Of a stretch of 64,000 nt of DNA, positions 51,569 to 56,455 are shown piece by piece (positions within the stretch are counted from its first letter, which is position 1; the number at the start of each line of letters is the position of its first letter). The stretch is taken from assembly GCA_045863395.1 (NCBI GenBank), contig BTVJ01000001.1:128001-192000 (forward strand). Direction: 5' to 3'. Below the pieces are notes generated by a model. The model saw only the letters and a program-made list of their open reading frames with translations. It was not told where the DNA came from and ran no database searches. The position numbers were made by a program, and so were the translations under genes. The DNA is from Myxococcales bacterium. Its GTDB lineage: Bacteria > Myxococcota_A > UBA9042 > JABWCM01 > BTVJ01.

Positions 51569-52905
51569 GCGCTCGGGAGCTCCTCGCCAGGGCGCTTGCC
51601 GGGCGCCGCGTGGCCTGGGTGGCACCCGACGTGGGGCGCACGCTCGGGCTGGCGCGCCTTCTGCCCGATCCGGTGGTCCTCTGCCACGACGCCATGGGCG
51701 CCGCGGTGGACATGCCCGTCCACGAGGTCCAGGCCGACCCAGCAGGAGATGATTTCCAAGGATCCCTGTCGATTCTGAACGATCCCTCCGCACAGAGGTT
51801 CATCAGACATCACAGGGTGACCGATCTCGTCCTCTTCAAGGTCAACGCGCGCATCATCTCCCTCGCACGCGACCTTGGCCTGCGCGTACTGGCAGGAGAT
51901 CCCGCAGTCGCGCAGCGCTTCGAGCACAAGCTGCACTTTGCTCGCATGCTTCAGGCGCTCTCCCTCCCGGCTCCGCCCACCCTGCTGTTCGACGGCCCCA
52001 TGCCCTCGTGGTCGGAGGCGGCGCGAGAGCTCGGCGAGGCCATCGTGGTCCAAGGAGCCCGGGGGCACTCGGGGCAGAGCACCCACCTGGCACGCAGCGA
52101 GGTGGACTACGAGCACGCGCGAGCCCGGCTGAGCGGACGAGGCGCCCGCCTGACGACGCTCGTGGAGGGCGTCACGCTGACGATCAACGGCTGCGCGGCC
52201 GAGGGCTCAGCCCCCGTCGGGCGCCCATACATCCAGCTCACGGGGATCCCTGGCGCGACCCCCCACGCGCTCGGGGCCTGCGGCAACGCCTTCGAGGGGG
52301 ATCGGCTCGGCGCGCCCGCCCTGCGCGCCGCGGCGGAGCGCATCGGTGTCGCTCTCAGCAGCGCCGGATATCGCGGCATCTTCGGCGTGGACGCGGTGCT
52401 GGACGCCCACGGAGCCATACACGTCATCGAGGTCAACCCGCGCATGATCTCCGGGTCGTCCCTCGAGGCGCTGCTCCAGAGCAGCGCCGGGGTCCCTCCG
52501 GCGGCGGCGCATGTGCTCGCGGTCCTTGGCGCGGAGCTGCCCCCGTCTCTGGCGGGTCCACCAGTGACCGGGGGCCAGATCGTCATCTACAGCCCCCACG
52601 ACGCACCGTGCCGGGTGGTCGCCGCCCCACCTGCGGGCCGCTATCGCCTCGATGGCGCCTCGCTCCACCGGGTGGATGGGCAGGTCGACCCCACCGGCTG
52701 CGCCCAGGACGAGGTAGTCCTCCTCGCCCGGTCCCCGGGGAGGGCCGTGCCTCCAACTGGCGAGATCGCCCGGGTCCAGACGACGCGGAGTCTCCTCGAT
52801 GAGCGGGCCACCGCGGACGCCCTCGTCGAGCGGTTGATCGCCGCGACTACCGCGGCCGTGCGCTTGGGTGGCCCGGGTCAGGCCGCGGGCAGGCGCTTGC
52901 GGTAA
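51565..52905 (+). CDS. ATP-grasp domain protein
   Basis: FEHKLHF, VVQ...GHSGQST, YRGIFGVD.V, VIEVNPR; GTGA overlap with the PLP enzyme. Confidence 0.82.
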   Translation: MSARELLARALAGRRVAWVAPDVGRTLGLARLLPDPVVLCHDAMGAAVDMPVHEVQADPAGDDFQGSLSILNDPSAQRFIRHHRVTDLVLFKVNARIISLARDLGLRVLAGDPAVAQRFEHKLHFARMLQALSLPAPPTLLFDGPMPSWSEAARELGEAIVVQGARGHSGQSTHLARSEVDYEHARARLSGRGARLTTLVEGVTLTINGCAAEGSAPVGRPYIQLTGIPGATPHALGACGNAFEGDRLGAPALRAAAERIGVALSSAGYRGIFGVDAVLDAHGAIHVIEVNPRMISGSSLEALLQSSAGVPPAAAHVLAVLGAELPPSLAGPPVTGGQIVIYSPHDAPCRVVAAPPAGRYRLDGASLHRVDGQVDPTGCAQDEVVLLARSPGRAVPPTGEIARVQTTRSLLDERATADALVERLIAATTAAVRLGGPGQAAGRRLR

Positions 52906-53852
52906 CGTCCCGCGAGGATCTCGAAGTACTCGGGAGACCGCGCAAAGCGCTGAAGGTGGTGGGCCCGCCACACCGCGAAGGGGTGGGTAGCCTGCATGCC
53001 CATCCAGAACGACATGGCCTTGCCCACGAAGCTCTGCTCCTCCTCTTCCTCGAGGCGCGCCGCCTGCTCCATGAACGCCTCCACGGACAGGGCGGCGCCA
53101 TAGCGGCGGCTCCCTCCCGCGAGCTTGAGCAGGGTGCGGATGCTGGTGTCGAGGCTGCCTGTGACCAGCAGCTCGCCCCGGTCCGCGCTCAGCTCGCTCG
53201 ACCGCGACCACTCGAGGAGGGCCAGGCGCATAGGCGTCAGGATGGCTCGCCCCCCAGGGACGAGCCCCCCGAGCACCGACGCGCCGAGCGCCGCGACCAG
53301 GATGGCGGCGGTCCGGTACAGGGCATGGCTGCAGAGCCAGTGCGTCAGCTCATGCCCCATGACGCCGAGCAGCTCGTCCTCCTCCAGCAGGTCCAGGAGG
53401 CCTGACGACACGGCCATGACCGGTGCGTCCACGCCGAGCAGGTAGGCCTGGGGGATCGGTGACTGGTAGAGGAACAGGTCGGGGAGGCTCGCGACCCCGA
53501 GGCGTGCGCCGGCGCGCTCGTAGAGGCGCAGGAGCTCGGGGAGCTGCCCCTCGCCGATGCGCACGCAGGTGGACAGGTGGAGGATCCGCCCGCGCCGGTC
53601 TCCCACCTCGCCGAGGAGGCGCTTGAGCACGCTCTCCACCCCAGGGATGTGCCGCAGGGCAGACAGGGCCTTGCGGTCGAGCGGGTGGACGAACTCGTCC
53701 GCGTCGATGTCGGTCAGCGGCTCCTCAGGACCGCGGAACATGCGGCCGCCACAGCCACCGCACCGGACGCGCTCGGGCGCAGCGGACGCCCGGTCCACCT
53801 CCACGCGGTTGCGCTTGGCACAGGACGAGCACTCGATCTCGAAGCTCTTCAT
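52878..53852 (-). CDS. M48-family zinc metalloprotease with N-terminal Zn ribbon
   Basis: CSSC..NRV...RCGGC, F.HPLDR.AL, GHELTH (HExxH), W.R.SELSADR, THP..V.R. Confidence 0.88.
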   Translation of the reverse strand: MKSFEIECSSCAKRNRVEVDRASAAPERVRCGGCGGRMFRGPEEPLTDIDADEFVHPLDRKALSALRHIPGVESVLKRLLGEVGDRRGRILHLSTCVRIGEGQLPELLRLYERAGARLGVASLPDLFLYQSPIPQAYLLGVDAPVMAVSSGLLDLLEEDELLGVMGHELTHWLCSHALYRTAAILVAALGASVLGGLVPGGRAILTPMRLALLEWSRSSELSADRGELLVTGSLDTSIRTLLKLAGGSRRYGAALSVEAFMEQAARLEEEEEQSFVGKAMSFWMGMQATHPFAVWRAHHLQRFARSPEYFEILAGRYRKRLPAA

Positions 53853-53896
53853 GGAAGCGGAGAGTACCAGGATTGGAGGGGAGATGCGTAGAGGAG

Positions 53897-54042
53897 AGTC
53901 CAAGGTGTCGAGAGAGGCGGCGACCACCTCCCCATGAACCCCAATCCCGCACCCAGCAGCAAAGGATTGAGGAGAAGCCGCCGTGCACATCCACCTGCCA
54001 ATGAAAGTCAGGGAGTGTGACCACCGCGCTCTCTCGACACGG
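53897..54042 (-). ncRNA. Candidate sigma-54-dependent structured small RNA or leader RNA (long rod-like hairpin)
   Basis: Perfect 12-bp inverted repeat (53905-16 with 54029-40), extended inward by a stem that pairs fully only with G-U on the minus strand; starts at the predicted sigma-54 +1. Confidence 0.55.
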
Positions 54043-54053
54043 GACTGAGAAGA

Positions 54054-54068
54054 GCAACCACCGTGCCA
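54054..54068 (-). promoter_or_regulatory. Sigma-54 (-24/-12) promoter
   Basis: Minus strand TGGCAC-GGTGG-TTGC(T), an exact consensus; AT-rich IHF-like tract at about 54099-54125. Confidence 0.75.
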
Positions 54069-54256
54069 CACCGCCTCGCCTCCGCCTCAGGCGACCACAA
54101 GCCAATGAGATCAAAGACAAATACAAGCTCCACCGCCGGACGGTGGGGGCGCCCCCCGCGCCCGCCCACCCAAGCCTGAGCCTGACATCCGTGTCCAACC
54201 ATGATCTGAATGTCACTGGCCGCGCCGAGTCCTTGTCGGCCTCCAGCCAAGCCCCT

Positions 54257-56455
54257 ATGATGGGACGCAGGACTGGGAGACTACGCGCCTTGACCACCGG
54301 CCCCCCCGCGATTGACGGCCACCGGCCCGTCATCCAGGACCAGGAGCAGGAGCTGCGCCGCGCACTGGCGGAGTTCACGCTGCTCCTCGTCCGGACGATG
54401 ATGCAGGCGTCCTACTACGCCCCCGACCACCCGGCGCACCAGCGCGGCACCGCCCAGGCCTACGATCTCCTGCGGCCGCTGCTCGGGCAATCCAGTGAGA
54501 TCGTGTTCGTGACGGGCTCCCTCAACGACACCTCCGATGTCCAGGTGGACGGAGTCCTGGCAGAGCCCGTGGGTGTGACCAGCCTCCTCCAGTCAGCCAT
54601 GGGCGAACACTTCGTCGCCAAGTTCCTGGAGTATTTCGAGCGCAACGAGCTGGTCTCGTTCTCCATCAAGCACCACATCGAGAAGGAGGAGTTCAATCGC
54701 TTCATGGGCGCCGTCGTCGAGCGACGGCTGGACATCGGCGAGGACCAGCCCCGCGAGCGGCGGCTGCCCTTCGACGAGATCCTCCAGCAGGTGGGCGTGG
54801 TTCACATCGGCGTCATGTGCCGCGACGAGATCGTCGGTGGCAAGCGCCGAATCCCGTGGGCCGTGCGGGTGGCGCTGAGCCGGCTGCGCAAGGACCTGCA
54901 GATGGTGCCTCTGTACTGCCGGGCGTCACAGAGGGAGCTGCACGAGGTCAAGTCCATGCTCGTCCAGGACGTCATCCGCCCGCTCAGACGGGTCGATCTC
55001 ATGCGGGAGCTGCTGCTCAACGCAGACCTCATCTCGCTGGAGATCGCGGAGGGCGCGTCCATCGACGTGGATACAGAGATCGTCCGAAACATGCACATCG
55101 ACATGGCCGCCACGGTGGCGAGCCGCCTGGCGGAGGAGCTGATCGCGCTGCGTGGAGGGACACCGCCCCTTCATCATAGCTTCGGCTCGGTGGAGCTGCT
55201 CGAGCAGCGCCTCGTGTGCTCGGTGTACCAGATCGTCGGGCACTTCTTCCGCACGGGCGCTCGCTACGACATGGCGCTGGTGCGCTCGCTGTTCGACCAG
55301 AAGGTCCTGGACATGAAGGAGCTGCCCGCAGAGGCGCGGCGCGCAGTCCAGGTCGAGCGCTGGACGGACCAGTTCCTCCATGACCCGCGGGCTCACCTGG
55401 AGCGGCTCGCTGCCATCACCTCCGAGGGGCCTTATGCCGAGCTGCTGACGGTGATGAGGCTGATCTTCGGGCAGCTGGTGCCGCGACGCAAGTGGCGCGA
55501 CGCGTTGCTGATCGTGCAGGCCCTCGATCGGCAGCACCGGGAACGCCTCCCGCCCTTCCCGGAGCGGACTGCGCTCCTGAAGGCGGCGCTGGACCGCATG
55601 TGTGCCGAAGACCAACTCCGGCCCGTGGTCGCGGTGTTCACGTCCACGTCCCGCGAGGACCGGGGAACCGTGCTGCGCATCCTCTCCACGCTCGGTGTCG
55701 AGGCCGTCCCGTTCATGCTCGAGGCGCTGCTGCTGTCGGACGACGCCGCGACCCGCAGGGACCTGTGCACGGCCATCGAGCAGATGGGCAAGCCGGCAGG
55801 GCGCTATCTGCTCATGGAGGCCGAGTCCTTCAATCACAAGTGGCACTTCTACCGGAACGTGGTGATGCTCCTGGGCCGCCTCCGCTATGAGGAGGCCGCC
55901 CCGGCGGTCGCCCGCCAGCTCGCTCACTTCCACCCGCGGGTGCGAGAGGAGGCGGTGATCGCCCTCGCCCGCATCCAGCGACGCAACGCGGAGCCGCTGC
56001 TGATCCCGCTGCTCCGAGACCCGGATCCGGCCGTCGTCCGCAGGGTGGTCAGCTCCCTGCGCACCCTTCGCTCGCGGGACCCGGCGCTGCTGGAGTTCCT
56101 CCGGGAGACGGTGGTGGCGAGCGGGGTGGCGGGCTCTGACCAGGGGGTGGCGGCCGCGGCCATCCGCGCCCTCCGGGACATGGGCAACATCGCCTTCCCA
56201 GAGGGTGAGACCGCTGAGACGCTGCTCCTCGGTCTCCTGGAACCTGGCCGCCGGCGCCTGTTTCGACGCACGGCGCGGGCGCCTGGGGAGCTGCGCGCCG
56301 CCGCGGTGGAGACGCTCGGCGCCATCGGAACGACCCTATCGCTCGCCGCGTTGCAGCGGCTGGCGGCCACTGATCCCGACATGAAGTCCCAGGTGAACTC
56401 CGCCCTGGATGCCCTCGGCCGGCGCCTCGGCGCGCGGAGCGGCCAGCCCACATGA
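54257..56455 (+). CDS. HEAT-repeat protein (start uncertain)
   Basis: N-terminal YYAPDHP motif; C-terminal HEAT repeats (RNVV.LLGRL, HPRVREEAV.AL, LL.DPDPAV, LRAAAVETLGAIG). Confidence 0.75.
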   Translation: MMGRRTGRLRALTTGPPAIDGHRPVIQDQEQELRRALAEFTLLLVRTMMQASYYAPDHPAHQRGTAQAYDLLRPLLGQSSEIVFVTGSLNDTSDVQVDGVLAEPVGVTSLLQSAMGEHFVAKFLEYFERNELVSFSIKHHIEKEEFNRFMGAVVERRLDIGEDQPRERRLPFDEILQQVGVVHIGVMCRDEIVGGKRRIPWAVRVALSRLRKDLQMVPLYCRASQRELHEVKSMLVQDVIRPLRRVDLMRELLLNADLISLEIAEGASIDVDTEIVRNMHIDMAATVASRLAEELIALRGGTPPLHHSFGSVELLEQRLVCSVYQIVGHFFRTGARYDMALVRSLFDQKVLDMKELPAEARRAVQVERWTDQFLHDPRAHLERLAAITSEGPYAELLTVMRLIFGQLVPRRKWRDALLIVQALDRQHRERLPPFPERTALLKAALDRMCAEDQLRPVVAVFTSTSREDRGTVLRILSTLGVEAVPFMLEALLLSDDAATRRDLCTAIEQMGKPAGRYLLMEAESFNHKWHFYRNVVMLLGRLRYEEAAPAVARQLAHFHPRVREEAVIALARIQRRNAEPLLIPLLRDPDPAVVRRVVSSLRTLRSRDPALLEFLRETVVASGVAGSDQGVAAAAIRALRDMGNIAFPEGETAETLLLGLLEPGRRRLFRRTARAPGELRAAAVETLGAIGTTLSLAALQRLAATDPDMKSQVNSALDALGRRLGARSGQPT

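Follow-up and report, generated by a model that had tools for sequence, protein, structure and literature searches.

A probable sigma-54 RNA gene with a predicted closed-rod fold between an M48 peptidase gene and a HEAT-repeat gene in a Myxococcales genome

The region between an M48 peptidase gene on the minus strand and a divergent HEAT-repeat gene in a Myxococcales genome carries an exact sigma-54 promoter box followed by a 30-pair closing stem, and is probably a stand-alone, uncatalogued sigma-54 RNA gene. The box and the stem had been pointed out in an earlier note on this DNA and both are confirmed here, the strongest control being a scan for closing stems at 477 relaxed sigma-54 boxes. 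The window, that is, the whole stretch of DNA that was analysed (64,000 nucleotides), is C1:128001-192000 of a genome of 8.77 Mb with 71% GC that is 97% complete. This genome is the sole member of its own family in the collection, and its order has two further genomes. The stretch occurs in metagenome runs from bioreactors, wastewater, aquatic sites and sludge. The nearest relatives are known as proteins alone, namely the M48 peptidases P0002 and P0003 (84% and 73% identity), and two M48 homologs at 40% identity bear Myxococcota names. The features discussed below are collected in Table 1.

Table 1. Features of the rod RNA element and its surroundings (positions are those of the window)
Feature	Position	Strand	Basis
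Zinc-ribbon M48 peptidase gene, likely leaderless	52878..53852	-	Pfam PF01435; closest homologs start at the same place
C-rich, G-poor tail (24 C and 6 G in 52 nt) where Rho might load; extended -10 at 53869-53861	53853..53904	-	rho present
Predicted 136-nt closed rod RNA, both ends putative	53905..54040	-	fold and pair probabilities; offset-14 stem as in C71; RNA-library contig ends at 54027 and 54025
3' arm of closing stem	53905..53934	-	pair probabilities
10-mer identical to the genome's own 6S, 40 versus 42 nt from the 3' end	53935..53944	-	word comparison
Inner 10-pair hairpin hiding the CU-rich stretch	53939..53972	-	competing folds 1.1 and about 4.8 kcal/mol higher
Predicted 36-nt 5' loop with little structure, possibly a bubble or display region	53973..54008	-	fold
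5' arm of 30-pair closing stem (12+11+7 pairs, two single-base bulges)	54009..54040	-	pair probabilities
7-nt direct repeat, 5' copy (3' copy 53922-53928)	54019..54025	-	junction of X15 97-nt circular contig
Sigma-54 -24/-12 promoter box	54053..54068	-	sequence; one of 21 exact boxes genome-wide
AT-rich tract, possible IHF site or U-rich tail of an upstream hairpin	54101..54125	-	partial match to the IHF consensus
CCACCG-N5-CGGTGG palindrome, some 90-105 nt ahead of +1, which may be an activator site or an insulating terminator	54130..54146		terminator-like
Divergent sigma-70-type promoter of the HEAT-repeat gene	54233..54261	+	RNA-library contigs begin at 54277 and 54278
HEAT-repeat protein gene, putative TTG start	54290..56455	+	Pfam PF13646; class homologs

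The promoter box matches TGGCAC-N5-TTGCT exactly on the minus strand, at 54068-54053, as had been claimed. Exact TGGCAC-N5-TTGCW boxes occur 21 times in the 8.77 Mb, compared with 4.5 expected from base composition, and the genome encodes rpoN and 45 matches to sigma-54 activators. Transcription had been placed at about 54042, at the foot of the stem; a start at the stem foot agrees with our analysis, and the exact position is more probably G54040, where the stem begins, because both long stems of this kind in the genome, the present one and that of an element on contig C71, begin exactly 14 nt past their boxes. The AT-rich tract reported upstream is present (about 54125-54101, 64% AT), and its match to the IHF consensus is partial. 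The palindrome further upstream occurs in eight copies in the genome, and this copy alone lies near a sigma-54 box. The promoter region itself (54080-54042) has a degenerate direct copy at 53999-53964, inside the RNA; in shuffling experiments 3 and 1 of 2000 shuffles equalled its score, and one of 20 other promoters scored nearly as high. This internal stretch was considered as a sequence mimic of the box and rejected, since a sigma-54 weight matrix scores it no better than shuffles (796 of 1000).

The fold of the minus-strand RNA is largely the one that had been described. Folded from 53895 to 54046, the minus strand reaches -80.1 kcal/mol (z -5.09), which none of 200 shuffles equalled, and over the wider range of 53850-54050 the minus strand gives a z of -2.83 versus -1.43 for the plus strand. 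The first helix, said to pair perfectly, has 12 pairs (54040-54029/53916-53905) with a pairing probability of 1.0; the second, with its three G-U pairs, has 11 (54027-54017/53927-53917, probability 0.88); and the third has 7 (54015-54009/53934-53928, probability 0.68). The argument that G-U pairs indicate the strand also holds, in that the outer stem contains four such pairs, which speak for the minus strand. The apical part had been read as a stem with a CUUCUCCUC loop, which is not the favoured fold, its energy being about 4.8 kcal/mol above the minimum. Most of the CU-rich stretch is base-paired, with GGGAUUGGGG at a probability of 0.81 and with GGGGAGGU at 0.18, and it is paired in both of the best folds, which are 1.1 kcal/mol apart. 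An intrinsic terminator was sought downstream of the stem and none was found.

Closing stems of at least 30 pairs were found at only two of the 477 relaxed sigma-54 boxes genome-wide, this element with 30 pairs and the C71 element with 38, and both start at offset 14. The next-best stem among these boxes has 19 pairs, and a stem of 28 is seen at none of 4196 random positions. The C71 rod (G000:C71:22772-22979, minus strand; L285:3773-3980) is also uncatalogued, is flanked by genes for an ArsA-like ATPase and an M16 peptidase, and folds at -127 kcal/mol compared with -91.6 +/- 4.6 for shuffles. It resembles the present element in its near-identical box, its offset-14 stem with terminal helices of 12-13 and 11 pairs, its long 5' loop and its 3' hairpin, and in being followed by a zinc peptidase gene with its own -10. 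It differs in its length of 180 nt, its longer stem and the presence of a Shine-Dalgarno (SD) sequence with a 48-codon Arg-rich ORF, and the likeness between the two inner sequences is at the level of chance (1136 of 2000 shuffles as good).

Many dispersed copies, as expected of a REP or MITE-like DNA palindrome, would have counted against an RNA gene, and blastn of the genome found the element in a single copy. A MITE or REP palindrome was also rejected on the grounds that the G-U pairs break strand symmetry and that the genome's 169-nt palindromic repeat family differs in sequence. The element is the 11th of 52 long stems genome-wide, and several of the higher ones belong to this unrelated family. 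These MITE-like repeats, of about 169 nt and with CTAG ends, lie at G000:C45:60242, C38:67681, C46:60858, C3:95291, C2:89154 and C7:130257, and further long stems of 160-182 nt may represent other such families. Another long stem, at G000:C2:224570-224691 on the minus strand (L287), is a 122-nt AT-richer hairpin with 35 pairs. Two classes of RNA were also considered and set aside. SRP RNA (RF00169) has no match at the locus, and the genome's SRP RNA is on C94. A protein sponge of the CsrB/RsmZ or CrcZ type would be expected to carry repeats, and the element has three GGA words and no repeats; Hfq and CsrA were sought in the 97%-complete genome and neither was found, which removes the usual sponge targets.

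Four RNA-labelled runs were compared as contigs, of which X19 (from a related strain) and X20 have no cover of the RNA and give no evidence. The contigs of X11 and X15, which belong to two studies, break off at 54027 and 54025, 13-15 nt inside the predicted sigma-54 start, and begin again at 54278 and 54277, about 10 nt inside the predicted divergent sigma-70 start. This gap pattern fits two divergent transcripts. We take it as a weak hint of expression, since it comes from RNA-library contigs, a G-rich stretch in the gap may drop out and the libraries may contain DNA. In the X11 study the share of sampled words present was 0.86 in two DNA runs versus 0.77 in two RNA runs; in the X15 study the shares were low and uninformative. 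The X15 run also gave a record of 127 nt, which corresponds exactly to a 97-nt circle (53929-54025) plus a 30-nt overlap, at a depth of 6.55 in one run, and this circle closes at the 7-nt direct repeat that flanks both sides of the helix. One of the eight equivalent junction registers gives a 2-nt 3' overhang, a typical signature of RNase III. The record would suit a precursor in which cleavage across the stem is followed by ligation to a stable circle of about 97 nt. We regard such a circle, or a decoy for a protein other than polymerase, as rather unlikely: the record is an RNA-library contig from a single run, X11 shows no such joint, and template switching by reverse transcriptase explains the junction equally well because it lies in a direct repeat present on both sides of the helix.

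The earlier note had also raised the possibility that the RNA is a regulatory leader of the protease gene, and this claim is weakened by our results. The M48 gene is probably independent of the RNA and transcribed from its own leaderless promoter, because it has its own -10 at a spacing that is enriched and some homolog loci share this layout without a sigma-54 box. The extended -10 sits 8 nt ahead of the M48 ATG, and such elements are enriched 6-8 nt before ATGs (5.1-6.6 versus 0.2-0.9 per 1000, with crude gene calls), the spacing seen at M48 giving 5.1 versus 0.2 per 1000 ATGs. The same leaderless layout is found at 4 of 27 M48 homolog loci, and a sigma-54 box upstream at 0 of the 27, some of which are truncated. 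In addition, the closing stem does not reach the M48 start, and downstream of the C71 rod the M16 gene carries a -10 and an SD of its own. It therefore seems unlikely that the stem belongs to a structured 5' leader of a sigma-54 M48 transcript, in which it would stabilise the mRNA or lock an upstream ORF. We retain this reading because a 28-codon upstream ORF (53935-53849) ends in an ATGA overlap with the M48 start and because the X11 contig is unbroken from 54027 through M48, where a contig does not equal one transcript. The M48 ATG has no SD, no terminator follows the stem, and the C71 sister rod likewise precedes a zinc peptidase gene, all of which would agree with a leader.

A structure conserved in relatives had been looked to as support for the RNA, and searches by DNA similarity, pattern, model and synteny turned up no homolog. 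In blastn searches of 60 relatives the only matches were of at most 43 nt. A promoter-plus-motif pattern matched one of 107 class genomes, which is the element's own genome, and one of 401 phylum genomes; a motif-only pattern gave noise; and a three-motif pattern matched 4 of 401 phylum genomes, the three other loci being without a sigma-54 rod. A single-sequence covariance model run on 107 class genomes gave a best other match with an E of 0.126, and its alignments are unconvincing. Among metagenome contigs there were 95 pattern loci, and none with z <= -3 exceeded 16 long-range pairs, compared with 33 here. Phage and plasmid collections held no match, apart from one viral 19-mer that is attributed to chance. 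As for synteny, no divergent sigma-54 box was found at 29 HEAT homolog loci (29 of 55 other matches) and no rod at 29 M16 homolog loci, and 15 distant M48 loci added nothing.

Sigma-54 boxes of relatives were also folded, for 52 of 80 and about 60 of 103 entries chosen by eye after dropping those with an obvious SD and ATG. In this partial, hand-picked sample the best closing stems have 25, 24, 22 and 21 pairs, and shorter closed rods with unrelated inner sequences follow sigma-54 boxes at L319:1501-1710 (G042), L382:300-465 (G001) and L395:300-462 (G040). At two further loci, L381 (G001:C96:4659 onward) and L384 (G001:C137), sigma-54 boxes are followed by arrays of short repeats. The element could also be a decaying remnant, for instance of a 6S duplicate or a tandem duplication at this site, whose transcript would have no function. 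We consider this quite improbable. The failure to find a homolog in the 106 other class genomes or 400 phylum genomes searched and the degenerate copy of the promoter region within the RNA are in line with decay, but the exact promoter box, the near-perfect stem, the strand-favouring G-U pairs and a second element of the same geometry on C71 are not, and, as the genome is alone in its family within the collection, close homologs would fall outside the sampling.

The likeness to 6S RNA suggested in the earlier note is weakly upheld as ancestry or function only, and fails as family membership. No Rfam match, to 6S or to Pxr, was found at the element, and a search with RF00013 at E<=10 gave none. 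With a class-specific model from 25 class 6S RNAs the element scores 4.9 bits, which places it about 84th among the 224 matches in 20 kb, and an nhmmer profile from 25 class 6S RNAs does not pick it up. A GGAAGCC-type motif (present in 23 of 25 class 6S RNAs) and a CCCAC-type motif (25 of 25) are absent. The element is therefore not a member of the 6S family. The genome's canonical 6S lies at C14:69618-69805 (61.5 bits), and nine weak or partial RF00013 matches in class genomes are ordinary 6S RNAs or noise.

In its predicted architecture the element is like 6S/SsrS (RF00013), including second copies such as B. subtilis 6S-2: the 5' end pairs with the 3' end to close a rod, the centre is unpaired, and the helix that closes the bubble is similar; by eye, its loop-closing helix resembles the bubble-closing helix of the Rfam 6S consensus. 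It is shorter, at a predicted 136 nt between putative ends compared with about 187 nt for 6S and about 160-200 nt for 6S rods in general, and its closing stem is nearly perfect. In place of a two-sided central bubble and a long apical arm it has a one-sided 36-nt loop and a hairpin of 10-14 pairs, and a fold retaining a 6S-like inner helix costs 8.6 kcal/mol. Class 6S genes have a sigma-70-type -10 upstream, whereas the element has a sigma-54 box. Besides the 10-mer (Table 1), a 5' 8-mer of the element also recurs in register in the genome's own 6S. None of the 24 other class 6S RNAs has a 10-mer in common with the element. With criteria set post hoc, a 10-mer of the genome's own 6S at the same 3' distance occurs in 299 of 38132 overlapping intergenic windows, and such a 10-mer together with a 5' 8-mer, both common to the own 6S, in 9 of 38132. 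Global alignment gives a z of 3.5 with the own 6S, whereas none of the other 24 class 6S RNAs exceeds 1.9, as local duplication predicts. Whole-length alignment to 6S is equalled by 6-32 of 2000 shuffles of the candidate in three scorings and by 2 of 2000 in a fourth; depending on the scoring, 118-491 of 6000 real intergenic windows score as well. These sequence comparisons provide modest evidence that the element may be a lineage-specific, shrunken duplicate of the genome's 6S.

The likeliest single mechanism, which we put forward tentatively, is that the RNA serves as a 6S-derived decoy for RNA polymerase. Lineage-specific duplication and shrinking of the genome's 6S would have given rise to the rod RNA gene. 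An enhancer-binding activator would switch the sigma-54 promoter on, transcription would begin at G54040, and the transcript would end by Rho or by read-through and then be trimmed back to the stem, its closed ends making for a stable RNA. Together with the 36-nt loop and the short inner hairpin, the long stem may offer polymerase an open-promoter-like shape, so that the RNA, predicted to bind RNA polymerase, would act as a signal-controlled decoy. In favour of this, the ends pair from the predicted +1 with no intrinsic terminator after them, and such pairing of the ends is more usual in stable protein-bound RNAs, 6S among them, than in base-pairing sRNAs. Against a 6S decoy, the loop is one-sided and rich in G. 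The C71 rod shares the element's layout and lacks the 6S words, so closed sigma-54 rods need not derive from 6S. Loss of the apical arm would be compatible with polymerase binding, since a B. subtilis 6S-1 truncated to the bubble with two short arms is reported to go through the cycle in vitro all the same (PMC8876501). A precedent is provided by Ms1 and CoRP, which PMC11077062 describes as lineage-restricted structured RNAs, missed by the 6S model, that bind polymerase. These actinobacterial RNAs are larger, at about 300 nt for Ms1 and 516 nt for CoRP.

A narrower possibility is a decoy specific for the sigma-54 RNA polymerase, itself made from a sigma-54 promoter. We judge this improbable; it would amount to negative feedback on a network of about 45 activators and one sigma factor. 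If this were the case, the short inner arm might suit a -24/-12 rather than a -35/-10 geometry. A Pseudomonas RNA called 'AS1', of roughly 150 nt, is said to bind the sigma-N holoenzyme, and in size and sigma-54 link it would be like the element. Literature searches found no description of the element's RNA or of AS1. Known 6S RNAs act on the housekeeping holoenzyme (PMC8876501).

If the RNA is such a sigma-54-specific decoy, the element, the C71 rod and the rods L319, L382 and L395 would form a class of signal-gated polymerase decoys. A 6S offshoot under a sigma-54 enhancer would link polymerase sequestration to a specific signal, and, if it is the sigma-54 polymerase that is bound, alternative holoenzymes would have decoys of their own. 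On the rival readings too, the genome has two uncatalogued sigma-54 RNAs of unusual closed geometry in a host with no detectable Hfq or CsrA.

The element might instead be an Hfq-independent base-pairing RNA or a sponge, the closed rod being its stable or precursor form, which we regard as possible though doubtful. By the first route, a switch or an RNase III cut would bare the CU-rich anti-SD stretch, which would block ribosome sites as Pxr does; by the second, bared G-rich strands would soak up C-rich sigma-54 sRNAs. There is precedent in Myxococcus, where a sigma-54 promoter is predicted for pxr, whose RNA occurs in a long and a short form (PMC5684412), and where Pxr and MXnc1 base-pair close to SD sequences with no need for Hfq (bioRxiv 10.1101/2025.09.11.675593). 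The two folds within 1.1 kcal/mol of each other and the RNase III encoded in the genome would allow such exposure, and a C-rich sigma-54 RNA, L403 of genome G040, formed the best duplex of 17 tested (-59.0 versus -39 to -54), as the second would have it. However, the anti-SD stretch is paired in both of the best folds, and starts with at least 9 complementary bases number 13 compared with 43 +/- 26 for shuffled flanks, which is no enrichment, so the anti-SD-like loop proposed in the earlier note is not borne out. No member of the L403 family was found in the element's own genome. Among intergenic partners, sought as exact complements and as G-U-tolerant duplexes, none stands out and the top match of the latter search reads as coding sequence, and the duplex with a sigma-54 sRNA on C38 is no better than shuffles.

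Pxr itself had been named as a sigma-54 sRNA of myxobacteria. According to PMC5684412 and bioRxiv 10.1101/2025.09.11.675593, Pxr of Myxococcus xanthus has a predicted sigma-54 promoter, an upstream enhancer region, a CU-rich stretch and a host without Hfq, all as in the element. To judge from its exact box, the element shares a sigma-54 promoter with Pxr; it has neither a match to RF01812 nor the three stem-loops of that family, and Pxr was not found in the genome. Other apparent small RNAs with sigma-54 promoters were seen in the course of this work. One apparent family in the class is C-rich (L403, L407, L342, L354, L326, L327 and L328), and a second has a conserved anti-SD word between two hairpins (L410, L418, L396 and L357). 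The sigma-54 small RNA on C38 (G000:C38:59630-59802, minus strand; L286) has exposed anti-SD loops and a terminator.
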